A stretch of 64,000 nucleotides of DNA from Phallusia mammillata. Taxonomy: Eukaryota. The stretch lies in the NCBI GenBank assembly GCA_965637545.1, contig OZ281497.1, forward strand, positions 26,970,001 to 27,034,000. The letters run 5' to 3'. Under the pieces are notes generated by a model. That model saw nothing but the letters and a program-made list of their open reading frames with translations, was not told where the DNA came from and did no database searches. Positions within the stretch are counted from its first letter, which is position 1. Every line of letters begins with the position of its first letter. A program made the translations under genes and the position numbers. Positions 7,087 to 56,649 of the stretch are shown one piece after another.

Positions 7087-10000
7087 ATGAGTTTGGCAGC
7101 GGACAGTTTATGGGAAACTGAGAAGATCGGGGTAGCTATCACTGCTGCGTGTGTAGTCATGGTTTTATTCAACAGAATGCATCGTTATATTCCCTGCCTC
7201 AAGTGTTGGACAAAAGGTATTTTAAAATTTGCGTAACTTACACTTAAAACTGACTTTAAAAAACTTACATATGAATTTGAGGTACTTTTAATAATAGATC
7301 TGCTGTTGTTTGCTTCGTGAGTTTTTGTTGTAGCCTATTTTTGACTACCTGTTCCTGTGTAGTTTGATAGCAACTTGGTTTGGGCTGCAATATTTGAAGT
7401 ACATTTTGGTTGTTTCTTAAAACATCCAGACAGTTTAAACGATTTTTTAAAGAAGGTAGTTTGTTTCATATCAGCACAAGCTTTAAAATATTCCGTGTTT
7501 AGATTGTTAAAGGAGGCATGTTTTGACATGATCACCTTGCATACGTTTTAATTCGGTATTCCCTGATGAGAGTCGATTAAATTTGAATACAGTCCGCATT
7601 TGCAGGGCTTACCTCATAGTTTGTTTGTTTCAAATCGTTTGATACACTTTCTTTGAAATTAGGTGGTTAGTCGTGACTATGTATATCGATATGAAGTGCT
7701 ATTTATGTCTCTTGCAATGTTTGTGTCGTTTTAGTTTAGATTTTCAATGCTGGTTTGTATGCTCACAGTCTTTGGTGTAAAGGTGGCCTCGCTTTTCAAA
7801 GCATCCGGTTTTTGTCTCGCAGCCTTTTGTTCGGTTGCTCCCACTCAAATATTTCGAATATGGTTTATTTTCTTAAGATCGCTTTCAATTTGTGCTCGCT
7901 ATTGTCACGCACTCGCCCCAAACGAGTTCTTCCGAATTTGTCGAAGCTCTTGTGTAAATCGAATGACAGAAAAATAACAAAGGAACAAATTCTTTCAACT
8001 TCTTACTGACATAGCTGGCTGAAAATGAAAAACAGTTGACTTGCCTTTTGTTTTGATGTTGAAACCTGACATCTGATTATCTGTTTGTCAATTTTCTGCC
8101 TTTCTGTGTGTTTGTAACTATCTTTTGACTCTTCTTGTCAGTTGCCATCTGTTTGTTGTTGTATTAAAGCCAGAAGCATGGGCCTTTTAAGCCAAAGATA
8201 CAGGGACATTTTATCCACTTTTCATGTTGTATTTTGAAGGAAACGAATTCACAATTTGTTGTTTTCTTGAAAAACAAGTCATTTTACATTTGCAAATCTT
8301 TTTTTATTTATTTTTATTGGCTATTATGGAAAATCTAACGAACAGTTTTGAGTGCTGTATATCTGCGTTGTTGGTTTAATTTTGAACGCGTCTTTAAAGG
8401 CCCTGGTCTCACCGTATGTATTGTTATAAGCAAGTTTTAAATTGTTGTCATTGTCCTTTCCTCAAAACAGTTGGTTTTGTTTATATCGACACCGATTTGA
8501 GTTGTTTCAAAACTCGATGTATACGAATATCATTAAGCTGTCAATCAACGACATTGGGATCAAGTAATTTGATCCTTAACACGGACGAATTAGCTTTCGT
8601 CGCCTTACTTCAATCTCGCTTATCACGTACACATCATTCGTTAACCTTCGAAACCCACCAATCTTGCTTTTTGCGTTGTAGATGCTGAAGGAACTGAAGT
8701 AGAGAGGACGGTCGTACGATACATGCCCGAAAGTATCGACAAACTCCTTTCCATCACTGGATTCGACAAAAACGAACTAAAAACGTTGTACAGAAACTTT
8801 AAAAACGTAAGTGAATCCATCAGCAAAAAGCTTGTTTAACATGTTGGGTTTTTGTTGCTGTAAATGTACAGTGATCTGGTAATCGATTTTTCACCTTTTT
8901 TGTAAAAGTGTTTGCTGAAGCAGTTTGTTGACATTAGCTCACGTCAGCTCTGTACCGCGGGCAAAGAATTGGTAATGATAAACTTGATGATAATTTGCTT
9001 AAACAGGCTTTATTGGTGTCCGCACATTACATATTAATGACAAGAAAATGTGGTGATGATGCATGACTGGGTTGGGTTCTTTAAAACTAGTTTCAGAAAA
9101 ACTTTTCTGTTTTCTGCTTGGTTAATCATCATGATTTAGACGCAAATTGGATTTAGGCCAATTCAATTTTGTGTGCTAAAGCTTCTTTACCAAACATTCG
9201 TTGCATATTGTTCATACTTTAACCCTCTATCTTAGTTGACAATGTTGTTCATACGAAAACGGGCCAAAATTGTATCTGGAGAAGTTTTAAGTACTAAAGC
9301 AATAATGCTCTTGTACCAAATAGATTCTTGCAACTCGTACAATAAAGATATATTCCAACAAGGCCAATAGAGTTCACGTTGGTGCTATAAACGGTTTTTG
9401 CGACGTTACAAGGCACGTTCAATTTTTTTAAGCTGGTTGAAACAAAACAAAAAGGTTTAGGAAAGGCCACTGAACAACCACAAAATCAAATTAGCTTTGA
9501 TTGATTGCAATTAGCCGCCGTCACTTCTACTTACTCGACAATTCCCTTGCTCTGATCGATATCAACTCCGTGTTTTGTGCTTGCGCTGATGGGATGGCGA
9601 TAATGACGAAACTAATCGTGTGCGACGAAACTAATTACACGTTGCATCGATCGACAACCAAATATTTGGTACCAGTCTAAAGTTCAATGGCTGTAAGTTC
9701 GAATCCCCACCAAGTAGTGTTACTGCGGTGTTATGTTGGTTATCAAGGCTGATTAAATGACAGTTAACAACAATACGTCTTGCGTGTAAGATGGGTAACC
9801 AATGTTTTCTCTAATTTTCCATTGTATTGTCACACATAAAAGCTACCTGAATACACGAGAACCATTGTGAGCAACATTACATGTGCTATATTTTTTTTAC
9901 CGAAACTTTTTCAATCTTAATGACGAATATAACGGCCCAATTCGTAATTAAACTTATGAAGAGATCCATGTATAGTTTTTCAATCTTCATTGCAGTAAAG

Positions 10001-25270: not shown

Positions 25271-26938
25271 TCAATATCGACGGCTCCTGTGCTCGGCAGG
25301 TGAATGACTGCGTTGACTTGTACGCTTTGCAGACGAGCGACCAGTTTCGACCACAGTTGGCGATGCAGCCCTATATCTGCTTGAAGAGTATCGTCCGGCG
25401 TCTCCGTCTGCATGGCCAGCCTCCAGCCGACCTTTGTAAAAACCGTTATAACTTGAACCTGAAAGACCCAGGAAAATTTGAACGTTACAAAACTTTAGTT
25501 GGACTTTGGTAAAGAAGCAAACAATTATTCACGGAAATAACTAATATTTTTGCACAACTTGTTTTAGTTCGTTTGACAATTCAGATAATTATTATGAAGT
25601 ATAACATGTTTAGGACTAAGCTATGATTGATTTGTAACGTTTATGAGACAAAATGTCAATCAAAGTCTAAATGTTCTTCGTCATTTCAGGCCATTTCAGT
25701 AAAAAAAATGCTGAATTCTGTCAACAAATACCTGAGCGGTCAGGAGCAGCATAAGCACGACTGGAAGCAGAATCAGCGTAAGCATCTCTTGATTTGCTGG
25801 AACCAACATCATGCGATCTTCGCTGCGCATAATCAGCCTTTCTTCCTGGTGAAGACCTGCTGTAACCATCAGATCGCGAACCATATGCGCGATCTCTTCC
25901 AGGCGGTGTTGTAGCCCTTGCAGTTGCAGCAGCAGCAGCAGCATAACGACCGCTGTAATCTTCCGGGGAAGGATCCCTCATTCTGCGTCTAGCTGGAGGG
26001 GAGTAAGTTGCGTCTGCAAATTCCCTTCGATCATGATATCCCGAGCCTTCCGGCCGTCTACTACCCATAGCAGGAGGGGAATAATCCCTCGTAACCTGCT
26101 CACTTCTGTGCACTGCTGGTGGCGAGTACTCACGCCGACTTCCAACAGGCATTCTTCTGGACCTTGGTGGGCTTTCCTCCTGATAGTTGTACCTTGTAAC
26201 TGGACTTCGTGACCTTCCACGTGATGCTTCGTATCTACCATTGTATGCATCACGAACAGTTTCTGTTGCATAACCTCTTGAACCAAAGTCTTCTCTTCTG
26301 CTTTCAGTGTAACGATAACTGTCACTATTATCTGCCCTCCTGTAATCGTAACTGCTTGATCTTGTGTCAGGGTTGGCTCGATCTCCATAACCTCCACTCG
26401 ATGCACCATAACCCCGACGAGAATCTCTAGCATCGTCTCTTGGGTCATCAAAACTGGCAACACCACCACCACGAGAGTCGTAAGTACTTCTTCTTACATC
26501 ACTGTAAGAGTCACGACCACCACCGCCGCCACCACTTCTGTAACTGTCAAATGAGCTTCGGCGTCCATCGCTCCTGCCTCTACCATCATCATACCGATCG
26601 GTCCTCCCAGAAAACCTGTCACCTCCTCTACCACCGCCACGAAATCCTCCCCGGCGGGGCCGATCAGCCATAGATGATTGTTTTTCAGCTTTTCTTACAG
26701 TCACACAGCGTCCCATAATTTCAACTCCATGCATTCTGCGGATTGCATCATCGGCAGATGATTGTTCTTTAAATGAGAGAAAAGCAAACCCTCTTGATTT
26801 GTTGGTCTCTCTGTCTCGCATTACCATGACTTGGACAATGTCCCCGAACATACTGAATGACTTTTCAAGCACAATTTCATCACAGTTGTGGTCCAGACCC
26901 CCAATGAAAATCCTTCCACCGATATCATCACGGCTCAT
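25271..26938 (-). CDS. RBMX: RBMX/hnRNP G-like RNA-binding protein (N-terminal RRM plus RGG/RS/YSPP low-complexity tail), about 464 aa
   Basis: Exon 26938-25732 carries RNP2 IFIGGL, RNP1 RGFAFLSF, MRDRETNKSRG, and RDYSPP/REYSPP repeats. It splices (G|gtattt ... tttcag|GT) to exon 25458-25271, which ends HRSRRY*, similar to the RBMX C-terminal RSRY. CIRBP/RBM3 family membership is not fully excluded. Confidence 0.8.
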
Positions 26939-29399
26939 GTTTCTGATTTTGTTTTGATGTAAAACAAATAATACTATCCTGTGAGACAAAATTCTGAGTT
27001 GGACACCAAAAACACAAGTGGCATAAAACCGAATTCACACCAAAAAATATCTGACCTCCAGTAACTTAATGCTGCCAATAGCATGCGATTGCATGGTAGT
27101 TTGACTACACATTCTCTATGAAACTGTTTCTATATTTCACTGTATATGTATCCACATTTCAAATATCAAATGCATTGCAGTAATGGACATGAAACAAAAC
27201 AATAGCTTTCATTTTGACAAAGTCCCAGTAGTATAGCAGCCAAACTGTTACAAGTGAAAGGTTCAGTGCAGCACTTTTGAGACAACAAGGTGTTCTCCAG
27301 TGTGCTACGAGTGTAGGACACCCACCAACAATCGAACCTCAACATGTTCAACAAACCAAATGGCTACCATTCTTTAGAGTTTTAAGCTGCCAAAATACCA
27401 GCATTGTGGTGTTTAGTCAGTCATTTTCTTTTGTGCCATAGCTATTTTTTCGTAATGCACAGAATGCACAACTGCACAACATATGGTTTGTTGTCAAATA
27501 AACAGACAAGCATAAATAAATTATGAATTTCAAAGCAACCTTGCTAAACATATTTTTTTCTCCATGTAAGTATTGTAATGCTCTTGCAACTGTCAATTCA
27601 TCAAATTCTTGTTACACCAATGAATGAAAGGAATAGATTGGGACTATATTTATATTACTTAGTAATCACCAAATTAAACAAGGATACAACAGGACACTTG
27701 ACTCAATAACCCATATTTTTTCAGTGTCCTTATCGTTTTACACTAATGACAAATTTGATGAAGTGACAAATGCCTATAAGTTTGACTTGTTGCAGTAGAT
27801 GCACATAACCAACAAACTGATCACAAGTCGTGGAAACAAATGTTTTGTATTCTTTTAAATCTTGCTTAGCTCAAAGTGTCAACAAATACCATATAAACAG
27901 CAAACACAATCTTGACAGTCTTATATTCCTACACAGTTTCATTTAAATTAAAACTGATTTCACAGAACAAAAACTGATTCTTACGAATTTAGATTCTCTG
28001 ATTTCAAAATGTAGTCAGTTCTTTTCTATCAGGCCTAGTTTTTCTGTTACTGTGCATCTGCTTTTGTGAAAAGTTGATTGTAATAAAATTGTCCCTGGTT
28101 ATGTTTACAGAGACAATATAGTACTAATGTAACTTGTGATATGAATTTACATTTATTTTAAGATCAAGCCGTCACAAACCACTTCAGCCAATATAGGTCA
28201 AGGTACATGCAGAAAATATATTTTACATTTTGAAATATCCGATACAAATTGACTTTCATGATTTCCAACCAAAGTTAACCAACAGTAGTCAGCTTTTAAC
28301 AAAACATCTCTACATTCTGGACATCTTAGTTTGCTTTCACTGACATCTGGATGAAACAGTTTTCTTTCACTTAGTTTTTTTTACAAATCCAGTTTGCACA
28401 AATTTCACATGAACCACTTTGCTCATTTTTCATCAAAAACTTTAGTTCTTTCAAAAAGTTTCGCCCCAGCATTGAATCCATTAACTATACACTAATATAA
28501 TGGGGGGATTTTTTATTTTTGACAAGTCTGTTAAAGTGCAACTTTTGTTTTAGTGAGATTGATTCACTCTGATATTAGGAAAATAAAACTGGCAAGTAGC
28601 CACAGTTAATATACAATAGCTTTTGTGTTATTACAGTGCAAATTTATAAAATTTATGAAACACCAACTTAATCAAGATTTTAAAACACCCAACACAGACA
28701 GTCCAATGATTACTGCACTTTCAGCATCCATAAACATCTGAACAGTACATCAAGTTTAACAAGCATTTATTGTTCAGGCACAGAAAACTGGCAAATCCAT
28801 TTCTTTTTGTCTGTCCACCTAATTGACAGCTGACAATAAGTTAATAAAGATTTTGGGCAGAGAAACATTTTAGAAGATAACAAGATGCTTGCCATACAAA
28901 TTATCAATGGCTAGACTCTCGATAGTTGAAAATTGGAATGTACTAAATTTTACAACTTGAAAACACACTTGACGCTTTGTCATATATTTCTTTAGTTACA
29001 CATAGCAGCTTGTTTTTACAAATTTAGTATAGGGGACCATGTTTTGTGTAATATGTTCTCTCATAGCGAGTCTTTCTGAAGTTTCTGAACTTGTAATGTT
29101 TCTCATTTCTCAAAAATCCAAGAACAGGTTGAAATATAGTGTTAAACAATTCACCATACTACAACAAATGCTAATAAACTTAGTGTGGTAAGTGGTTTGT
29201 GTACCACATAAAATCATTTCTTTTTTACGAACTATTTCAGATTCTCAAACATTTTAATGTATTTGCTATGCAACTCACACAAATCAAACTCAGGGTTCCA
29301 CAGATTGTTGACAATCAAAGTTCACTGACATCAGGTTCAGATTCTGACAATAAAACTGAAATTAAAACCGAAAAACATCCAAAAACTGCGAACCTTTAC

Positions 29400-30243: not shown

Positions 30244-33200
30244 ATGGATTTCCAGAATCGAGCTGGAGGCAAGACTGGTTCTGGGGGAGTTGCTTCATTT
30301 TCGGAAGCAAATCGTGACAGACGAGAGAGACTTCGTCAACTTGCACTTGAGACGATCGATTTGAACAAGGTGTGAAACTGTGAATGACATCTTTGTTTAT
30401 TAATTTAAGAGGTGTTCTGTAATTTTGAAAAGGACACGAGAATGAATAAACTGATAAAGAATTAGCATGTTTTGTTTTTCAGGATCCTTATTTTATGAAA
30501 AATCATCTTGGTTCATACGAATGTAAACTGTGTTTGACACTTCACAACAATGAGGTATGTATTACTTCATACATTTCTACCCATTTTCTTTCTTTTTTAA
30601 CCACAACATTTATTTTTATGGTGTCATAGGGTAGTTATCTTGCACACACACAAGGTAAAAAGCATCAGTCAAATTTGGCAAAGCGAGCAGCACGAGACGC
30701 CAAGGAAGCTCCAATACAGCCAGCACCAGCAAAACCTCAGGTCGAAGTCAAGAAGTTTGTTAAAATTGGGCGTCCTGGTTATAAAGGTATGAACATAATG
30801 TAAACTTGTCACTCTAAGCCACTTGCTGTAGGGCAGGTGTGGCCAACACGTCGATCGCGATCGACTGGTCGATCGTCTGCTTTTGACTGGTCGATCGCAC
30901 TAAATTCTCCATTACTAATCAAAAGCTTATCAATTGAAAAACAAATTAAATAATATAAAACAGCACTTCTGACATTTTGACACAACCCACAAATGTGCAA
31001 TGAGACAATAATAATGTAAATGTCACTCTCTTTGTTGGGTAACAATTGTGATTTTCGTTTGTCGTCACAACTTTAATGTTTGCGTTAACGAAGCAGTTGC
31101 AATTGATTGAGGAGATTTAAAAGTTTGAAAAATATGTACATATGCGACGTTTTATTGTTGCAAGAACTAGGTGATGCTTTATAATAAAACTCATGAATAT
31201 AAATATGTGGTAATTGTCAATCAAATCTCATGCAGAAATTTGCGTTATTGCTTTGTGTAAGTGGTAGCCTAAATTACTACTGATCAGTCGATCGTGTGCA
31301 ATTAAGAAAATTTTCGTCGATCTTAACGACTAACAAGTTGGCCACCCCTGCTGTAGGGGATACAGTGTTGTCGTAATTAAATTTGCCAAGCAATATTACG
31401 AAATCCAAATTCAACTTTTTTAGCTTTATATTGATATCGACAACTATTAAAACATGTCAATAAAAGTTAAATCATGTCTTTAAAAACAAAAATACATTTT
31501 TGCAAACATCATTCTGGTACTAAGACTGCTAACTGTCGCGACTGGTATAACTGGTATCATTAGTTAAATTTGTACCAATCAGATTTTTATTAACCGACCA
31601 AATGTCAATTGATTTTGTGATATATATATAAGCCAGAACAGTTTTACAAACCTATTTCATGTAGATTTAGCATCATACTCTAGCAAAATGTATTTTATAC
31701 TTTCAGTTACAAAGCAAAGAGTTCCAGACTCCGGACAACAAAGTCTTCTTTTCCAAGTGGATTATCCAGAAATAGTAGAAACCATTCAACCACGACACCG
31801 CTTCATGTCAGCTTATGAGCAGCACGTTGAGCCACCAGATCGAAAATGGCAGTATCTACTTTTTGCTGCTGAGCCATATGAAACAATTTCTTTCAAGGTA
31901 TTTTAAAACATTTTGAGATTAACACAAGAAAATTCTGTTGTAAACTATTATGTGCCTTGTAACACTGTTAATCTGTGCTGGGTTTTTGATTAGGCCTTAG
32001 ACGAAGCTTAAGCAAAAATAATTTCAGGCAGCTCACAATCTTGGTGTAGTTGTTTTTGAAGAAAATTAGACATGTGACTTTAAAATAGATAAAACACATA
32101 GCTAATTAAAAGAGGTGATCTGAAAAATTTGCAACCCTGATTTTGAACAAAAAGTCAAAACCAAAATAATACTATATATTGCTCAAACATATATATAATT
32201 GTAATTTTCTGGGTCACTGAAGTAACAGTTAAAACAATGGTTTGTAACCTCCAGTAGTTTGTGATCACCTAAAGTACTGCCTAAAACTCATAGCACCCTG
32301 CTCACCTAATAAAAATGTGCTGCATTAAAAAGGAAAAAGGGGTTGCCACTTGGGCCCAACCACTCACTTAATACTATGGAATGCCTAAGATAGTCGTCAT
32401 AACTACTTAAAGGTGTATAAGTTCACACATGTTTTTGTTATTGTTTATTGTTGGGTTTAATGACAGCACTAAGAAGTTTCCTACTTTGTTCATCGGTGCA
32501 TTGCAAAATGTTTGAAAGCATTCGTCCATTTTTCACCCTTTTACCCCACATTTATATATATTTATACATATATATGTGTTGGGTTTGGGTTGAGAAACGT
32601 AGACCTAAAAGGTTCAGATCATGGTTTGGATAAAAGCCTGCCATAATTTTTAAAGCACAAAATTGATTGGTTGAAAATTACAAGTTTGTTTTTTCAGGTG
32701 CCAAGTAGGGAGATTGACAAAGGTGAGGGAAAATTTTGGACATACTGGAACAGGGACACAAAGCAAGTAAGTTCAAAAAATTTAGCCTGTCACCAAGCAT
32801 TCACCATATGACAAGGTGTAGGCTAAAAAAATATAGCCTGTGGTGGAACTTGAACTCATGACAGGAGTCTTTGGGTAAAACATTAAACAATATCTAAAAG
32901 TAAGGAAGGGTTTTGTGTTAAACATGTATTTCTTGATCTCCCACTGCAGTTTTTCTTGCAATTTCACTACAAGATGGAACTTCGTCCTCCACCGATGACA
33001 ATCATGCCTGAGGAGCAGCAGAATCCCCAACCTCCACAAGAAGAAGAGGACACAGTACCTCTTCCACCTGGAACTCTTCCTCCTATGAACAACATGGACG
33101 ACTTCGACAATGTTGCTCCTCCTGGGATGTTCAACGACATGCCCCCATTCCAACCACCACCAGGAGGTCCTCCATCTTTCAACAACTACCGAGGTCCCCC

Positions 33201-33360
33201 ACCCCCTATGGCCCCACCACCAATGGGACCCCCACCTGGAGGCCCCCCGATGATGGGAGGAGGGGGTCAAGATGAGTTTATGGATCATGGCCCTCCACGT
33301 GGTGCCCCACCCCCTCCACCCATGGGTCCTCCCCCGGATATGGACGATCCCGAAAACTGA
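30244..33360 (+). CDS. SF3A2: Splicing factor 3A subunit 2 (SF3a66), about 341 aa, 6 coding exons
   Basis: Exons 30244-30369, 30483-30554, 30630-30786, 31707-31897, 32698-32766, 32950-33360. MDFQNRAGGKTGSGG, the U1C-type zinc finger YECKLCLTLHNNEGSYLAHTQGKKHQ, KIGRPGYKV, PRHRFMSAYEQ, WQYLLFAAEPYETI, and a Pro-rich tail. Confidence 0.97.
30834..31350. mobile_element. hAT-type MITE in an SF3A2 intron
   Basis: TIRs caggtgtggccaac / gttggccacccctg, perfect 8-bp TSD CTGTAGGG, and subterminal gtcgatc repeats. Confidence 0.9.
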
Positions 33361-34741: not shown

Positions 34742-37700
34742 TCAGCCGTCCTGGCTATGACTGTGTGAGGAGACAGACTGACTTGCGCGTTGTTTTCTTC
34801 GAGATCTGAACGATTTAAATAAAGATTTGCTTCGACTTTTCCTCAAGGGATGATCCTTTTCAAACTCGTTGCCTGGCAACGCCAGAATCGCGTCATTTTT
34901 TTGTGCCTGAGGTTCGATTCGCTCTTTCGGATGTAGAAAGGATGAGAGGGACGAAAATATTACGGTTTCCAATGGTCGATGGGCTTGTTTACGTGACCTT
35001 AAAAGAGAAAAAAATTGATAAGGTTATAGTATGTGTGTTTTTTGTGCGGCTTGATTCTGCATAACGTGCCTTAAATGGATCTGGCATACTATGATTTATA
35101 TATGAGTGTGCCATGATCGCTGGTCTGCATTGATGCTTCAGGGCTGATCCCAGTTATGAATTTATGTGTTGTGGGTAGCCTACATTTGTTATTTATTCTA
35201 AAAATTGAAACTTATACCGACATACCCTATTTAATATGTAGAAAGTGTTTTGCTATATTTTCACTAAATGTGGCAACTGTACACACTACTGCTGGGTCTT
35301 GAAAACAGGGCAGTCTTCAAGACATTTACTGAAAAAGTCAAGACGCAATGCATATAATACTTTTATACCTGTCAATACAAGAAAACTTCCAGTTAAGGAT
35401 CGTCAGCCATTCTTTCTTTTCCTTCTCACTTATTGTGTACATGTAATATGTGCGGTCCGGCATTTTGATTCTGGAAACGGAAAAACTTTACTATGATCGA
35501 AAGATACCAACACGAAGGCCAAACACTAGTTTACTGCCGTCGTAAAAAGCAACGTTAAAAAGTCATGCACGTAATTATTTGCTGATATTGCAGAAATAAC
35601 ACATTATGCAAATCAAGAAAGGTACTGTGCAAAGATAATAAATACAGTATGTAAGTTATTGTTCCGAGGCATAATATTAAGTTTATAGAGCTCTTCTGGC
35701 AAATGTATTTATGCACCGACGTTTCGACGTCTTATTTACAGGTCGCCCTCATCAGGGTAAATAACACTGAATGAACAGCACAGTGCACGATAAAAAAAAA
35801 TTTCTTTGTTTCCCTGACAGAAGAGCTCTATAAACTTGATAATAAAAACATACTACTTCATAAAAAATCATTTTGCTTACCCGAACGAAAACGGTCTTCC
35901 CACTTGAGCACTTGGGTCTTCTTCTAAAGCTTTGTATGACGTCAGATCGAGCGTTCCTAGTGGCCGAAGATCGGTTGGTTCGTGATAATATTTCATTTCA
36001 TATCCACTCAATGTGAACCAGCGAATGTTCCAGGTTTTTACAGATCCTCCTTGTTTCGTCATAAAACCCTGCTTCGAGAGAACCTGTAGAAAAAGGCGAC
36101 ACCTTGTTAAATGCTGCAGCGACCCGGATAAAATAAGTTCTTTAAACTACCTAATTTTGTATTTTATTTTGTAATTTTTGTATATTATGACATGCACAAA
36201 AAAACTTCTATGCGTCACAGATAAATTATGACGTACTTACTATACGTCACACTTAAGTTAATTATTTGCAAAATTAAAATTTAGCTGTTATTTTGTAGAA
36301 AATTGATCTGTGCGCCATGAAACATTTCACTGAGATATTTTAAAAAACTTACCCCCGATTTTTCCCAGTTATCGAACAAATTATCGACATCTCGAATTGC
36401 TTGCATAGTAATTGCTCGTCGTTCGGTTTCATTTACAGAAGCTGTTACTTCTTCCATCATCTGTGACGTGATAAAGAGCACATTATTAAGCGCAAAATAA
36501 AAAAACCTTCATGTGAACACGAGTTAGGAAGGTTTAAATGCGAAAAAACAACATATAAAAACGCCATTATTTGTTTAACTGTATGTCGACACTAGGTTGC
36601 AGCAAAGTGCCATTTTGTGTTTAGAAACAAAAGAACAATAAAATTTTAACTAAGATGAACATAGATGTGCCTTGCCATGTGGGGATGCTTGGGTAAAACC
36701 TTAATTTTACATTCCAATGTTTATCTAAGTCTTTCAATCAAATCGGATAATCGGCTTTGTGACGTAAAAGAGCTATTTTCAGGATCAATAAACAACAGCC
36801 ATCAAAGGTCAAACGCAGACTAGCATTAAATGTCGTCACAACGTCATTACGCAATAAAGGAAAAGCGCTACGTCGTAAAACACAGAGCTGACTCAGGCGG
36901 AAACCCACGCTAGTGTAAAGTTCATCGATTAACGCTCTTGAACAACACGACGGGAACTTGGATTTGTCAGACGTTGACATTAACTAATGGCGTTTCTCTT
37001 TTACTCAGTGTTCTGCACCAGTTCTTCTTTACCGGGTAAATGTTTAACACATCAGGGTGAATAAAATGATTGGAATGATGAACAGACTAAAAGGGTGAAA
37101 CAAGGTTTAAGAATACTGTCGTTTACTTACGTGAAAGGGGTGAATGACATTTTGGGAATTTTCGCGTAAAAACGGTAAATGAAATTTTATGAAATTTCAG
37201 TGAAACAAGAACATTACATTGTGGAAATTTTCGCGTGAAATATGAGAATGATATTTCACGAATTCGGCGTGAAACTAATGAATGACCTTTGTGAAATGTT
37301 CATGAAACAGGTAAATAAAATTTTGGTGGCGATTCGTGAGTAAGAGTAAACAATTATAAAAAAAGCTTTACACGACATTAAGTTAATATATTTACCTTCA
37401 TGGCATTTGAGACCGGGGTATGATCGCTGTGACTTTCTGGCGTAAATTTCTTCAGTTCCCGTAAAAGTAGAGGGTATTTGCACAAACGCTGAACAGGTGA
37501 AATGATGAAACCTTCAAGGTGGAGAAATTTACGAGTTTTGCTCGCTACACTGTCTTTCCAATCCTAAAAAATAAATTAAATATATTTGTTTGTTGCATTT
37601 TTATGGTTGTTATTTGTTGCTTTTTTCCCGCTGCAAACCTGTATGTAATAGCATATACGTCTACTACAAATGCGTAAAACATGAAAACCACCAAAATTGA

Positions 37701-40700
37701 CTTCTGTTTTAATAGTTGTATTTGTACCAGTACAAACATGATACCAACTCCATCGCTTATATTCAACAGTTCTCAAGTTTAATCCGAAATATAACGGCCC
37801 AAATAGACGTCAAAAGCGACATGCTTTATTGTTCAGACGTTTCGGCAAATGCTCATGCCATCATCAGTGATATAAAGCATGTCGCCTTTACGTTTATTTA
37901 CGGGGCTGTTAAATTCTTCATTATTCTTATGAACAGATCCGTGTCTAGTGTTTCAATGGTTCTCAAATCCACAAAAACTTCTATATTAATCCAACCGTTC
38001 TATAACACATTATGTTTTTTTGTTGGAAGTTTGGAAACATTCTGTGCAGCTTCAGCGATTCGTGTAAAGTAAACTCACGGTGAAGCCAATAGTTTAATGT
38101 GAAAATTTTGACTTTAGAATAATGAAAATAACTTCTAAAACTGTACATACCTGTATCAGTGCAAGGACTGTCGGGTCGGCTTGAAGCTCGTAACTGATCC
38201 GTTGCGCGGTTTTGAAGTTGGCGCAAAACTCTCCATAAACTTTAAACTCGTCCCTCTGCAAAATACAAGTTGTTTGTCAAAATTATCAGTTCACTTATAC
38301 ATCGCTCTTATGTCCTTCATTTCTGCTTCAATGTCGATTAACCGTGTTCGTTATGTTTGTGTCCAAACTAGTTTCCAAACAGATCCAAAGGTTGCAACAG
38401 TTTAATTTGTACTTTAATATCTTAACAAATGATGTACTTATTACGTAATATTAAGTTTATGAGCCTATATGGAATCACTTTTAATCAAAAAATGGTGCAA
38501 TACACGTTATATTCACTTATACTTATCAACAAACTGTTTACTAGTTTGTCCACATAAAAAAACGCACACGCTTACTCAAACTTACGTGTTTGAGGAAAAT
38601 GTTGCCTATGCAGTTAGTATAGTAAGGGTATGGTTCCATGACGTCACGCAGAGCGGCTGAGAATCGAACGTGCAACCTGTGGATCTCTCTGATGTTGGAC
38701 AACATTTCGGGGATAGTTCGGGAGGTGACACATGCAATCTTCTCATCTTTGGCAAGTCGTTGCAGACTTGGAATAATAACCTGTTGAAGGCCACGGAACT
38801 ATTATTAGAGTGAATGCTTTGTCTTATATGTGTGGGCACAGCTTGCGCACATACGGTTGCTTGCAGTGGCCCTCAGTGTACTCAGGGAGCTTGTGTGTAT
38901 GCCCAGGTACATTAAAATATATGGTGCACATAAACTGGTGTGTGACCACAGCATGTACATCTAATGTTGCTCACAGTGGTCCATATAGCACTCAGGGCTC
39001 ATGTGTGAATGTACAGACACATCAAATTCTATGCTGCATCTCACAGAGGCCCTTTCAATACTCAGGGAACTTGTGTGTATTCCAGGACACATGAAAATCC
39101 CCGCTGGACATAAACTAGTAAGTGACCACACAGCATGCACATCTAATATTGCTCGCAGTGTTTTTAAAGAGCTTGTATGTCCATAAATGACAAACTAAAG
39201 AGAACTCTTTTAACAATAAGGCAACAGTTTCAGTATTGGATCACAACAACAGGGCTTCTGCTACACCAACAAACACTTACGTCAACGATAAACTGGAGTA
39301 ACTTGGCGTAATCTTCTTCAGTTTCGAGTATCTCCTTGAGCACATACATCCTCAACTTTTGCTCCCCAGTGAGAGCATAACCTCTTCCTCCCTCCTTCTC
39401 GCTTCCTCCGGGATCAGCTTCGTTGATCTGCATCGCTCCCTTCACTGTCTTCCTCATGGTTCTGCGAAAAAAACAAGTTATATGGTGATAAAGATTGAGA
39501 ACCACTGGACTCTTGAAACCAATGAGGGATGAGGCAATTGTTTGCTTATTAATTGTTTGGTACAAAGTTGATTAGGCCCGAAAGTTTGATTGACAGGTCT
39601 ATACATTGAAGCCTCAGGAGAGATCAAGACAACAAACACAATTGGTCTTAAACAAGGCGTTTTAGGGCTGTTTGACATGAGATCAAGTCCAGCAACTGGC
39701 TTGTGAAAAAAAAGTTATGAAAACGGTCATCCACATAACAATAGGGCTAAATTTATTAACGACAGTTCAAAACAATTTATATTTAAAATTGCGTCGGTGT
39801 TACCAGCAGGAAACGTTCATCAATATGCTTAAAAGACGTTATATATACGTTTAATTTGCCACTGTGTACATAAATATCATAAACGGGAAAACAACACCGT
39901 TATAATTAACAGGTTATATTTTGGTGATCAACATCCTGACATTTGCCTGTTTAGCATTAAAATGCAAATTAGCCTTGGTCAGGTTTCATGAAGTGAAACG
40001 TTATCTAATCTCGAACTTTTTTTGTGGCATTTTTGTACCTTTTGATCTGCGTTGCTTCGGGCATTTTAGCCTGACGTTTGGAAATCAGATCAATGCGACT
40101 TATTTTATGGTTATAAACTTCTTAAAGTTGTCGATTTATCAAAGCTAAAAAGGAAAAGGAAATTTGTTACAGCACGACCGGCGGCTGTTTATAGCAACAT
40201 TGATAGCTTACAATCAATAAACCATTTCTTAAAAACTCAGTAAGTATGAAGTATAACGGAAGTGTAACAGTTTAAAGAACATCATACATATTGTTTATGA
40301 TTTTGTATGTACATTTTACCAACGACATCCTTAAACCAACAACTAACACTTCGACTGTACAAGCGCTTGTCGCCCCCAAAAAAGCAGTTTAGAAGACATC
40401 AAGCATAAGGGAGGCTGAGTTTGTCACAAAAAACTTAAATCAAACACTATCAGCTTTAACACGACTTTCTATTTAACTCAAGAAACTGAATTCACCAGAT
40501 TACTATTTGGTACAACATTTTGCATGGCAGCATTATGCTCGTACAAAGACAGACACTAACATTCTTATCTCAACGTTCAGCCTTTGTAAAGAAAAAACAC
40601 ACACAAACCCGTCTTAACCTGCAATACTGCTGTTAAACTGAAACCACGTCTGCAGATGGTCACAAATTGTAATCAAACAGTCTCTACATCCGACTAGAAA

Positions 40701-51100: not shown

Positions 51101-53630
51101 TTTGTTAAGCACTACTACCGACGCATGAGTAATATGCCGACTAAAGCTTAACGATTCCCAATCGGTTTCTAAGACCATATGAGGAGAGGTTGTATGCAAC
51201 TAGCAGGGGTGGCCAAACTAGGGGATTGCAGTTTTATTTGATTTGGTCAATCACGAATTTTTTAACGTTACATGTTAAAGGTTTGAATGTGACCGGCGGA
51301 GACTTAATACGTAATTGAGACCTGTATGCCATAAAGCTATATTTTTCTTTCTATTATTGATATGTATTGCACGAAACACAAAAGCTGTTTTAAATTCCTG
51401 GCACTTGGTTCTTTAGAAAATCACCAAATTTTAAACTCATGTTTTTTTAGAACAATACACATTAAATGTTCGGCTAAATTGCCTCAATAATTAATAAATT
51501 TAAATTAAACACTCAAGTTATATAAATTCGTCACTATAACTTACATAGTTGTGACGTCAGTCGGGGTGCGTCACAACGTGACGTAAGATCGGTTGCGTGG
51601 TGATTCAGTGACTGCAAGTTGGTCATATGGAGTTTATACGTGTGATGAAAGCACGGTATGAACATTACGCCAAATCAGGGGTGCTTTAATAGTTCCTTAC
51701 AGAAATAGAAATAGGCGTGTAAAGAAAAATTTGATTTCGTCTTTTCAGCAGCTTAACGTTGAATTTCTTCCAGAGCCCTGGAAAGCAAGAAACGTTCTGG
51801 TGCAAGAAATTTTTTGTCCCATTTCAAACACTAGTTATATTTACACGTGCGCTCAATTCTATAAAGAAAGAGAACCAAAATGGTATACTCGTCAATCAGT
51901 AGTAAAGCAACTAATAAAAAAAAACACGTTTTTTTGTTTTTGAAATTTAACATCCATGCCACCCTTAGACTTTTATGGATCGTGGTTCGGCGCATTGGTT
52001 GTGGTGCATCCCCTCTTGTGGGCTCTAATATTTGCGCAACGATGCGTTAAAAATCCGTGCTGTTGTTTAAGTACTATTTAATACATTGCTATTAAATTTG
52101 GGTACTAAAAAAAAAACAATAAGTAAAGGCTGGAACTACTTGGCAATATGTTTAGGTTTTTTAAAGGAGGTTCGAATCAAGGAGTTCCGGATAAACAAAT
52201 CACGTTCAGCTTGTTTGTTTGTGCACCCCTGGACCAATTTACCAAGTGCCGAAGGTAAATAGCTCGAGTATGCCTCTAGTGTTTGCTAATAAATATTATA
52301 CTTCCGCCAGGTAGCGTAAAAGGTATTTTAAAGGTTTAGCGTTTATTTGGACGAGCAAACGAGGCAGGAACTTGGCTGAATAGCGCGCCTGACCCATACA
52401 CAGACATACAAAAAAAACTGATCTGGATTCGTCCCCGGGAGTGTCCTGGGTTCGGACCCCGTGAAAAAAAAATGGACGAGTAAACGAACGCAATTTAATT
52501 TGACCATAATTTTGTGACCACGTTTTTGCGTTTTAAGAATGCCTTTTCATCACAGAATAACTAAAATACACCAGTGGTTATTTTTTATTGGCCAGTCGGT
52601 CCTTAAATTTTTAAATCTAAAAATATTTTTTGTATTTAACATTTCATCTGTAAAATCCGTTTAGAGATTAATGGATGTCAAAGACGAAACATTTCAATGA
52701 TATTAAAGCATTAAAAATTTCAACCATTGTTTTTACAAACACGTTGATGTTGGCATTTAAATTTAACTACTATGAGCTGAAAATAACGACATTGAAAACA
52801 TCGGAAGTATAACTAAAATCTTAAAATTAAATTAACTTGTGCGAACTCAATCCTGAATAGCATTGAACTAAATCCGTTCATAGTTCATCGAGATGTAACT
52901 TTGATATTTAGACAAAAGATTAACATAGCAAATGGACAAATGGGGCAAACTGGTCGACGGTACCAACTCCTTCGAGTCAATTTGAATGGAGATTAAGATT
53001 CCGTCGCGGAAATTTAGCTGGGTGAGGCCAATTGCGGTCGACGATTTGGGGGTGTGTTATGTTTATCAGCTTGTTGCTCCCGCAGGTGAAACGGTCAAGG
53101 TTAAACGTTTGACATTGACGCGGAATGCGGTTTAAGGTCAAATTGGGATCACGTACTTTCACGGAGTCGAACCGTGATCAATTTGTGACGTTAATAACTC
53201 TAACTACTTCGCTTTTATTGAATAGGACAATAACGATGTATGTAACTGACATTAGTGCCGTACTTGCGTAATTGAATAAGGCAAAACAAAGAATATTTCT
53301 TTAAATACCAATAACGTCGGAGTTTTTTGTAATCCAATTTCATATGTTTTTCATTTAAGCCTTTTGAGTTTACCAACTGTTGAAATTGGGTTCAGTTTAA
53401 ACGCACCAGACGATATACAACTTCTACTTTATGTAGTGATCCACAGAAAATGCTTTGAAGAGTTGTCCGAATGCGTTTAAATGCTAAAGACTTTTGCAGG
53501 CAATTTATTTGGCAGTTTTTGACATAACCCATCATCTTAAATAAATTAAGAGTCCATGAAATTAAAATTCTGAAACAAGTTCTTGTGATTGGAACACTAT
53601 ATACGGATATGTTCATAAGTTTAATTATGA

Positions 53631-53768
53631 AAATAACGGCCCAAGTAGACGTAAAACGCTACTTTATTTTTTAAATGTTTCCGCAAATCACTGACGATGA
53701 CATGAGCATTTGCCAAAATGTTTGAAAAACAAAGTATGTCAATTTTTACGTCTATTTTGTCCGTTTTT
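53631..53768 (+). repeat. Decayed copy of the 37.8 kb hammerhead/inverted-repeat element
   Basis: Shares the arm taacggcccaa.tagacgt and the core TCA-CTGACGA-T-GACA-TGAGCATT-TGCC-AAAA-TG-TT-TGA with the 37.8 kb element. GAAA has become AAAA and CG has become TG. Confidence 0.75.
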
Positions 53769-56649
53769 CTTGTAATTAAAATAAAAAAATAAAAACTTAT
53801 AATAAGGGAAGAGGGCCATAAAAAATTTATTACAAACGTTTTAACAAACGCTGTTGTCTTTCTCACTGCAATAACATGCATATTTGCAGCTTTTGGGCCA
53901 CTATCATCATGCAACATAGGGTGTTTTACGTTCACCTAAAGTGGTCAACAAAAGGGAAATTTAAATTGTAAAATATATTTCGGTCTGTTTTCTGTTTGAC
54001 AAATCTCAATTTAAATATTCGTGCAAACAACACTAAAGGATTGAAATAGCAGAGTGCCAAGTAGAAAAGCAAATGTCAGTGTTTGACAAACACTTGAAGT
54101 TGCGGCAACACAAATAAACAAACACTTGTTCGCGTGTGAACATTGGGGTCAACGAAACATGGCAATGCAAAATATTTGGTAAAAGTCAACAAAAATGCCC
54201 TCCAAAAAACAAACTAATCCGAATTTAACTAATACAAAGTTTTCTGTACTATTTCCTAAGCTTTTAAATGCAGATTATAATTTCCGTAATCTCCTAACGT
54301 ATTCTCAATAACAACACACGAACAATCAGTAATTCGGGAGCAATTATTTCCCCTCATTGTCCTAGCTTCGTGATCGCTTCTCAGTATGGTGACGTCACAG
54401 TACTCATGATTGCGTCATACTGAGCTTGTTCTGGAATACTTTCATGTCGATGTTGGCTTGAAAAACGTGGAAAGATTCAAGTGTTTGTTGAATGAGTTCA
54501 AACGTTAGGTCGTCGTTGATTAAACACTTAATTAGCTAGCGACAAAAACGTGATGATTTTTATACGCGACTTGTTTCATGTTTTGGTCACGTCATATTTT
54601 GTAAGCGACATTACATCACTGGCCGAAAGTAATATGAACAAAAACAAACTTGTAATTGTAAAATGAAGACAAAGGGTATCAACTAATTGCGCTTATAAAT
54701 CTATTATCGGCAATATAATATACAAACATGAGTTTTAGTGTGTTTGTGACTTTTGTCGGTCAAATACTTTTCGCATCTTTATGCACTAAATCGGGGAGAT
54801 TTCATAGGCGTTTAAATTGCAATTCTGTAATTCCTGACGCACAAAAAATGATTCCAGACAACGTAGACATTCCCAGTCGTACACAATACTAATCGCACGT
54901 TTGGAGAACATACTAGAATGCCAAACAACAACTTTCACACGACATACAACACAACCACATCAAACATCACACCACATCCACAAATGCTAATTATCCAAGC
55001 TGCGCGGCCATCTGCCTTATCCCCTTCTCTATTTCTCATTAAAACATACGTTTGCAGCCTCAAAATCAGCTCTTGTCGGTGTTAAGTAACGGGGCGTCGC
55101 CAACACATCAGTCAGGCCGCTGTAAGGGTTGCAATTAGAAGAATCAGGTTCAACTTTGCTGGTGCCTCACCGTCTAACCGCTACTGGTTATTAACGAGGC
55201 AAGTTAACGGACAAAATCTGGGTTTCCGTGATTTCGTTAATTTGACACGCAAGGTTCAACCTATAGAGGTAAGGTCATGGAGGTTAAGATCAAAAGTAGG
55301 AGGGGCAGTGAAAAAGGGGCGGGGCACTTTTGGAATTCGCTTGGTTGCATAATTCTTGAAATTTACTGTGTGAGAAAGGAAAAAATATAGGTGCGCAAAG
55401 AAAACAAATATACGTCTTTATTGTGTTTTGTCTCCTTTCCAACACTTTATTCTTTCCGTTTTGGATTTTTATTTTCATTTAAACCACACCCATGCGTTCA
55501 TTCTTCCTTTCCATACTATGTCTTATTAAAATTTAGCACATGATAGGCGATCAAAGGACATGAATAGAGACAATTGCAATTTCGTAGGCTTACCTCACCT
55601 ATCATTTTCTATTCTCAGTTTTACCCCAAACTAGTTTTTAGGGCAAAACATTTTTCCAGGATTTTGCTTGGATTTTTAGTCTGGTGCTTTGATTCTCTGT
55701 CATTTTACCTGTAAACACCTAGTCTCAAACAACAGTTTTTTTTTTTATATATTTGCGCACTCATGGAAAAAAGCTATTCTAAAGACAAGTTTGTGCAACA
55801 ACGATTGTAAAATAGTATATAATTGAATTCTCATCTAAATAAAGTGAACACCAATTCAGATTCTAAAAAGCTTTTACAATTTACGTAGCATTTTCAAACC
55901 ATAAACTGCAAAAAAGTAATTTAGAAATCAAAAATTATTTGAAAATAATATGCCACCGAATGTTGTTGACCAAACCATAAACCTCAATAAGGCCAGAAAA
56001 ATCATTTTCGATAAATTTCTAAATATTGGGAAAGTCCCAAATCGTGGGGCACTTTTCTTTGGGGTCAATAATTGGGGTTTGATGGTTTGTTGGGGGTGGG
56101 ATGTTTTGTTACGGGGGGTTTAGGGGGCGCGTCGTGGGCCGATTCAAATACCGTGGGAAAGCGACACTCAGGAATTCGCGGAAGAATATGAAAGTACTTG
56201 AAATTTTAAGAGCTGGCATGCGGCGGGTGCGCCTCTAATTGGACGCTGACGTTGTAAGTGTAAAATATTTTGTTTTGAGTCAAAGTTCTTGCCTATAATG
56301 ATTTGCTAACTAGTTCGTCCTGCACTTGTAATATTATATGTTGATCGTGGGCCGAACAAAAAAATCAATAACTGAAGTAATTAAACATGAAAACGAGTTA
56401 TAGTTATGCATGCCATCAAAATTTAGACTTTGTTAATGTTCTCAAACTTGTTCAAATACAAACTTTTCCAAACTCCCCAAACTTTCAAGTCCGAATTCAA
56501 AGTCATTACCGAAAAATATTTTGACTTGCCCCAACCCATCCCTCAAAACGCCCCAACAGGTCCCCGTTTGTTTATTGTTTACATTGTTACTTCGTTGCCG
56601 CCCCAACAAAATCCACTCATCTCTACCAACACCCAAAATTCACTGTCAG

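Follow-up and report, generated by a model that had tools for sequence, protein, structure and literature searches.

The hammerhead motif that lies between inverted repeats in an intron of a Phallusia mammillata RhoGEF-PH gene belongs to a 191-bp insertion that is very probably the 5′-truncated end of a Penelope/Poseidon-type element, fused head-to-head with a second, short copy of this end in inverted orientation, both parts likely having arrived in one integration event; for the hammerhead itself, folding predictions indicate a passenger that is misfolded. In the window, by which we mean the whole 64,000-nucleotide stretch analysed (contig OZ281497.1, positions 26,970,001-27,034,000), the insertion can be assigned to its family, has its boundaries inside a target-site duplication, carries its tail on one side only, has a junction unique in the genome, and lies in an intron that is spliced. 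The locus is an ordinary decayed end piece of a common Penelope-type element, and it matters little on its own, as one among hundreds of such end fragments. More generally, when a hammerhead is found flanked by inverted repeats in an intron of an animal, the first reading to consider should be a Penelope inversion and not a MITE, and the family offers a clean data set on how Penelope integration resolves.

The Insertion and Its Host Intron

Each arm of the inverted repeat (35679-35698 and 35818-35837) is the perfect reverse complement of the other throughout its 20 bp, with 27 of 30 positions matching when both are extended, and the two flank an intact hammerhead core on the minus strand, as a sequence-only reading of this DNA had described. 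The folding here is far beyond chance (minus strand, z = −5.8; 0 of 200 shuffles as strong). The earlier reading placed the element at 35679-35837, which is right for the end of the right arm and too short on the left, where the insertion reaches about 35647. Its boundaries are set at 35647-35837 (191 bp) because a 13-bp direct repeat borders both ends (Table 1), with a score matched by 0 of 2000 random 35-mers; on the right there is a 4-bp uncertainty, since the first four letters of the duplication there also fit the element. Positions in the element are numbered from the stop codon of a young long copy, L044, and in this numbering the window contains 72-218 in minus-strand orientation, together with a plus-strand fragment from 169 onwards. 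About 30 bp of homology, corresponding to the tail, therefore extend past the left arm.

Table 1. Features of the insertion and its surroundings (window positions; reference, numbering from the L044 stop codon)
Feature	Position	Strand	Evidence or remark
Target-site duplication, left copy	35634..35646		12/13 identical to 35838-35850
Main copy, 5′-truncated 3′ end (pLTR) of Penelope/Poseidon-type element, reference 72-218, tail included	35647..35798	-	84% to L044
Penelope tail, ~30 bp, at one end only	35647..35678	-	bimodal 3′ ends of copies
Left arm, reference 172-191 of main copy	35679..35698	-	554 exact genome matches
Minimal type I hammerhead	35705..35767	-	core letters and description in the accessible part of PMC4209133
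Junction linker	35799..35816	+	15/17 collinear match to reference 67-78 and 115-119
Right arm, a second copy (reference 169 onwards), short, inverted, with neither tail nor ribozyme	35815..35837	+	
Target-site duplication, right copy	35838..35850		first 4 letters also continue element sequence
Host intron GT..AG, 410 nt, contains insertion	35471..35880	-	joint 35470-35881
PH-domain exon of RhoGEF-PH gene	35881..36083	-	PF00169 E = 6.7e-9

The host gene runs on the minus strand. Its PH exon is clearly recognized (Table 1), and the upstream exons, joined in one contig, give RhoGEF matches below the Pfam cut-off (E = 8.5e-4 and 0.028). The insertion is in sense orientation to the gene, and the right arm ends 42 nt from the donor in use (GT at 35880-35879), in agreement with the distance of about 45 nt in the sequence-only reading. 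Splicing of the intron was seen in all four RNA-like runs, from two studies, and the normal splice joint is the sole one listed there; these runs are contigs guessed to be RNA or unlabelled, in which strand, level and cut ends are unreadable and rare forms are lost. Pairing of the arms in the pre-mRNA would give a hairpin of 20-30 bp, which would be removed with the intron.

The Parent Element

In the genome the arm is matched exactly at 554 places, a control at none, and the ribozyme pattern has 510 matches; a first-look search with the stretch had returned 1933 candidates in its genome, 40 of which were scored and gave 71 matches. The proposal of a mobile repeat that carries a ribozyme is thus upheld by many related, ribozyme-bearing copies together with the target-site duplication. 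Followed upstream, the copies enter an ORF, which in long copies is a single frame encoding a reverse transcriptase (RT) along with a C-terminal GIY-YIG nuclease, with the motifs ADKG, YVDD and a C-terminal GVVY..YIGET. Weak Pfam matches that stay under the curated cut-offs are seen to RVT_1 (E = 5.9e-6) and to GIY-YIG (E = 0.002-0.005), and there are 3246 relatives at E ≤ 0.001, the best at 47% identity; a search of solved structures with the ORF gave weak matches (E = 0.15 and 0.51). By inspection, the ORF of L046 has no paired cysteines just before GVVY, i.e., it is without a Zn-finger-like RT-EN linker. In L044, the hammerhead core starts 117 nt past the stop codon, in the pLTR after the ORF. 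Long copies are 90-98% identical across the ORF end and are arranged as head-to-head inverted pairs; the arms of four such long copies (L043, L048, L049, and L050, which also include partial tandems) are ~99% identical, and the family therefore has young members. Judged from its motifs, the parent is an endonuclease-positive (EN+) Penelope-like element of the Penelope/Poseidon type.

Much of this agrees with what the accessible parts of two papers on EN+ Penelope-like elements report: RT with C-terminal GIY-YIG, heavy 5′ truncation, a tail of 30-40 bp at one end only, and, as already described for Penelope elements, a layout in which a partner copy, truncated and in inverted orientation, stands at the 5′ end (PMC8557442; PMC3846280). 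At the window locus, in contrast, both halves are tiny (~150 and ~25 bp) and only one holds the ribozyme, and duplications in the family measure ~10-16 bp, whereas excerpts of the same papers give 8-10 bp for the Penelope-like elements of Adineta (PMC8557442; PMC3846280).

The insertion also resembles the non-LTR retrozymes in being non-coding, derived from a Penelope-like element (PLE) and equipped with a type I hammerhead, insofar as the accessible text describes them (bioRxiv 10.64898/2026.07.22.740005). By that same text retrozymes are tandem units with at least two ribozymes, and the window locus is an inverted insertion with a single one. Elsewhere in the genome, a locus at about 35.538 Mb of C1 (L002, 1210-1715) holds three 150-bp ribozyme units in tandem, with a short copy in inverted orientation closing the row; it is a retrozyme-like array of the same family and could form dimers.

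Layout of Copies Across the Family

For a wider view, 60 loci were taken in order from 100 listed places among the 510 ribozyme-pattern matches, with places already sampled and evident duplicated blocks skipped. An inverted partner stood at the 5′ junction in 23 of them, 32 were solo (no partner detected), four were tandem, and one lay at an edge. Their 5′ ends are scattered (−451 to 115), and the 3′ ends of copies are bimodal, at ~190-196 and 217-226, i.e., ~28 nt apart. The tail, ~28-30 bp long, is present on exactly one side in 20 of the 23 inverted pairs, as at the window locus; once one duplicate and two uninformative pairs are dropped, the count is 19 of 20 (p = 4e-5 against 50:50). Target-site duplications are common in the family, and among the other pairs 14 of 19 reached a duplication score of at least 9, compared with 1.8% in the null, although some scores may be too high because the test windows take in 7 nt of element. 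In 92 exact-arm copies, 5′ truncation points are dense at reference 91-120, 141-160, and 167-172 and sparse at 61-90 and 121-140, an unevenness that may reflect RNA hairpins or alignment effects.

MITEs are small, non-coding elements with many related sequences, an inverted repeat and a target-site duplication. The sequence-only reading saw such a look here, which would mean a unit with 20-bp terminal inverted repeats that spreads as a whole with the ribozyme as cargo. Perfect arms, small size, the target-site duplication and hundreds of related sequences agree with it, as do several other copies with one ribozyme between short arms. However, the terminal repeats of a MITE lie beside the duplication on both sides, and at this locus 32 bp, within the homology that continues beyond the left arm, intervene on the left. 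Instead of a uniform length and interior there are scattered lengths: nine inverted pairs less than 600 bp apart were found by eye among the first 100 of the 554 arm matches, with spacings of 107-546, and in long copies the interior runs on into the RT/GIY-YIG ORF. The window junction occurs once in the genome, at up to two mismatches, and each of the look-alikes with short arms and one ribozyme has a junction of its own. The locus is not a MITE, because the unit did not amplify; what separates it from MITEs is the want of a fixed unit length, the asymmetric ends, the unique junction, and the retroelement parent. The arms are a retroelement 3′ end and an inverted tail-less fragment of it, and the MITE-like interpretation, largely refuted, is extremely unlikely.

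A Model of Integration

One-sided tails and duplications of ~10-16 bp fit priming from both cut strands at two start sites. Under this model, the element's nuclease would make a staggered cut about 13 bp wide, and reverse transcription would be primed by both cut strands, from a tail-distal start site and from a site ~28 nt further inside. The long and the short cDNA would then be joined at their truncated 5′ ends, so that the inverted repeat around the ribozyme would be a by-product of the joining. After integration the copy would have decayed, and its inverted partner was perhaps shortened later. Studies of PAc, the Poseidon element of Anolis carolinensis, offer a parallel: the accessible part of that work shows both DNA strands to be cut and extended, AT-rich targets, which the family shares, and a pair of RT start sites between which the tail lies, in keeping with the bimodal 3′ ends found here (PMC11167929). 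A literature search on Penelope-like elements, twin priming and inversion yielded no paper on the Penelope mechanism, going by titles and the beginnings of abstracts, and the two-primer idea may have been published elsewhere.

The inverted arm could also have arisen after insertion, through fold-back repair or through the collapse of a longer head-to-head dimer by deletions. Full mirrors do exist, in L093 and L025, and the 17-nt linker reads as two collinear pieces of the element, as if a near-full mirror had lost its middle. This match (15/17) is a weak one, equalled by 111 of 3000 shuffles and by 15 of 3000 random 17-mers, and going by its letters the linker is possibly what is left of a longer inverted partner without its internal parts. 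Against a later origin, both outer ends border directly on the target-site duplication, and the arm stops at the family's tail-less start site; the inversion therefore dates from integration, and the shortening of the partner alone could be later. We regard a later origin of the arm as rather unlikely and prefer the joining of two cDNAs during integration.

The Hammerhead Motif

On the minus strand, CUGAUGA (35755-35749) and GAAACGUC (35725-35718) supply the core letters C3-A9, G12-A15.1, U16.1, and H17, and the predicted cut falls between 35718 and 35717. Helix I (35767-35756 with 35717-35705) and helix II (35747-35726) are both possible, an extra nucleotide stands at 35748, and a palindromic ACGU within GAAACGUC replaces helix III. 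The hammerhead call is based on the core letters and a published description of the minimal type; Rfam hammerhead families gave no match in the whole window at the gathering thresholds or in 35500-36000 at E ≤ 10. With the minimal type I hammerheads of metazoan PLEs, as far as the accessible text describes them, the motif shares the extra nucleotide after A9, the G10.1-C11.1 pair, a 4-bp helix I, palindromic positions 15.2-16.2 and, in the family, a 7-bp helix II (PMC4209133). In the same text most motifs are single and some form opposite-strand pairs 100-700 bp apart; the window copy differs from them in its weakened helix II and in lying inside a 20-30 bp hairpin from the inversion (PMC4209133).

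Folding predictions point to a misfolded ribozyme. Helix II of the window copy is weakened by a mispair and a wobble and faces competition from a GACGU/ACGUC hairpin. The predicted probability of its closing pair (G10.1-C11.1) is 0.001-0.08, compared with 0.94-1.0 in a young copy, and in the comparison across the family it is 0.01, where the 65 copies compared have a median of 0.91 and 13 of them are as low. Helix I, under a hammerhead-shaped constraint, pairs slightly better in the window copy than in the young one, and hammerhead-shaped dimers, which for both lie far above the free fold, do not discriminate between the two (−15.8 vs. −32.3 for the window copy, −20.1 vs. −47.6 for the young copy). 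No footprint of cleavage in vivo was seen in the form of a pile-up of 5′ truncations at the cut site, reference 153, in the 92 exact-arm copies: nine start at 153-160, against 11 at 141-152 and 10 at 167-172.

A lone minimal hammerhead without helix III would need a second copy for cleavage. Minimal PLE hammerheads are described in part of PMC4209133 as inactive in vitro when single and of low activity only as dimers, and a review cites Lunse et al. for dimer cleavage (PMC6765202). According to the accessible part of PMC11167929, the ORF of PAc starts inside the ribozyme, cleavage by the Anolis ribozyme depends on its protein, and insertion in vitro does not need the ribozyme. Since cleavage in Anolis requires protein, the window ribozyme may yet be active in cells.

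Age, Selection and Possible Use by the Host

The sequence-only reading took the perfect arms as a sign of either recent insertion or selection for pairing. A recent insertion is not supported: the main copy departs from the subfamily majority at 17 of 147 positions (11.6%; 47 copies have a median of 5.9% and a range of 2-13%), which places it with the more diverged members, and the insertion is present in all four DNA runs, where unique contigs span both junctions. These runs represent at most four samples from three studies, one of them possibly the source of the assembly. No difference listed for their unique contigs falls inside the insertion, and no empty-site allele occurs among the 15 joints listed for them (28 more exist, and contigs lose rare variants).

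Selection for pairing is not supported either. Arms matching at 20 of 20 positions occur in seven of 19 ribozyme-chosen pairs and in 20 of 45 overall, the latter set being partly arm-chosen. Within the window copy, changes affect 3 of 60 arm sites and 16 of 117 sites elsewhere (p = 0.12); this low arm divergence tends in the direction of conservation without reaching significance, at a locus that drew attention through its arms. None of the 11 core letters is changed despite the divergence of 11.6%; the same holds for 13 of 24 arm-selected copies, and in these 24 copies core and flanks decay alike (17/264 vs. 122/1388 changes, p = 0.23).

A co-opted Penelope remnant, in which the hairpin holds the ribozyme clamped by the donor and adjusts how the RhoGEF-PH pre-mRNA is spliced or cleaved, would account for the sense orientation, the nearness to the donor, the intact core, the low arm divergence and the presence in every DNA run. 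Yet the arm excess is not significant at a locus noticed through its arms, helix II is mispaired and faces a competing hairpin, helix III is missing, and the normal joint alone is listed in the RNA-like runs, whose contigs lose rare forms. We consider such co-option very unlikely. A specific form of it, in which the host kept the remnant because a protein-assisted cut nicks the intron and arms of 20-30 bp hold the halves together, so as to act on RhoGEF-PH splicing or as an RNA-level switch, is most improbable. If true, a co-opted intronic switch would make this a Penelope ribozyme of a rare, domesticated kind; the evidence does not speak for co-option, and a literature search combining hammerhead, intron, Penelope and ascidian found no paper.

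Neighbouring Sequences

The next intron of the host gene (34996-35366) contains a fragment of a second high-copy repeat at 35052-35167, with 1915 candidates, some of whose copies recur at a 355-bp period. Another repeat family is represented at 37769-37871 and 53587-53780, with copies also near 9908-9985; inverted arms of 37 nt mark its copy near 53620-53780, and RNA-like runs cover pieces near 37.8 kb. A minus-strand open frame of 437 codons (25724-27034) presumably has an RRM-like start and an RGG/RS-rich tail. On the plus strand, exon-like frames with a proline-rich end (31613-33357), which we take to resemble splicing factor SF3A2, finish at a distance of ~1 kb from the RhoGEF-PH gene's 3′ end.
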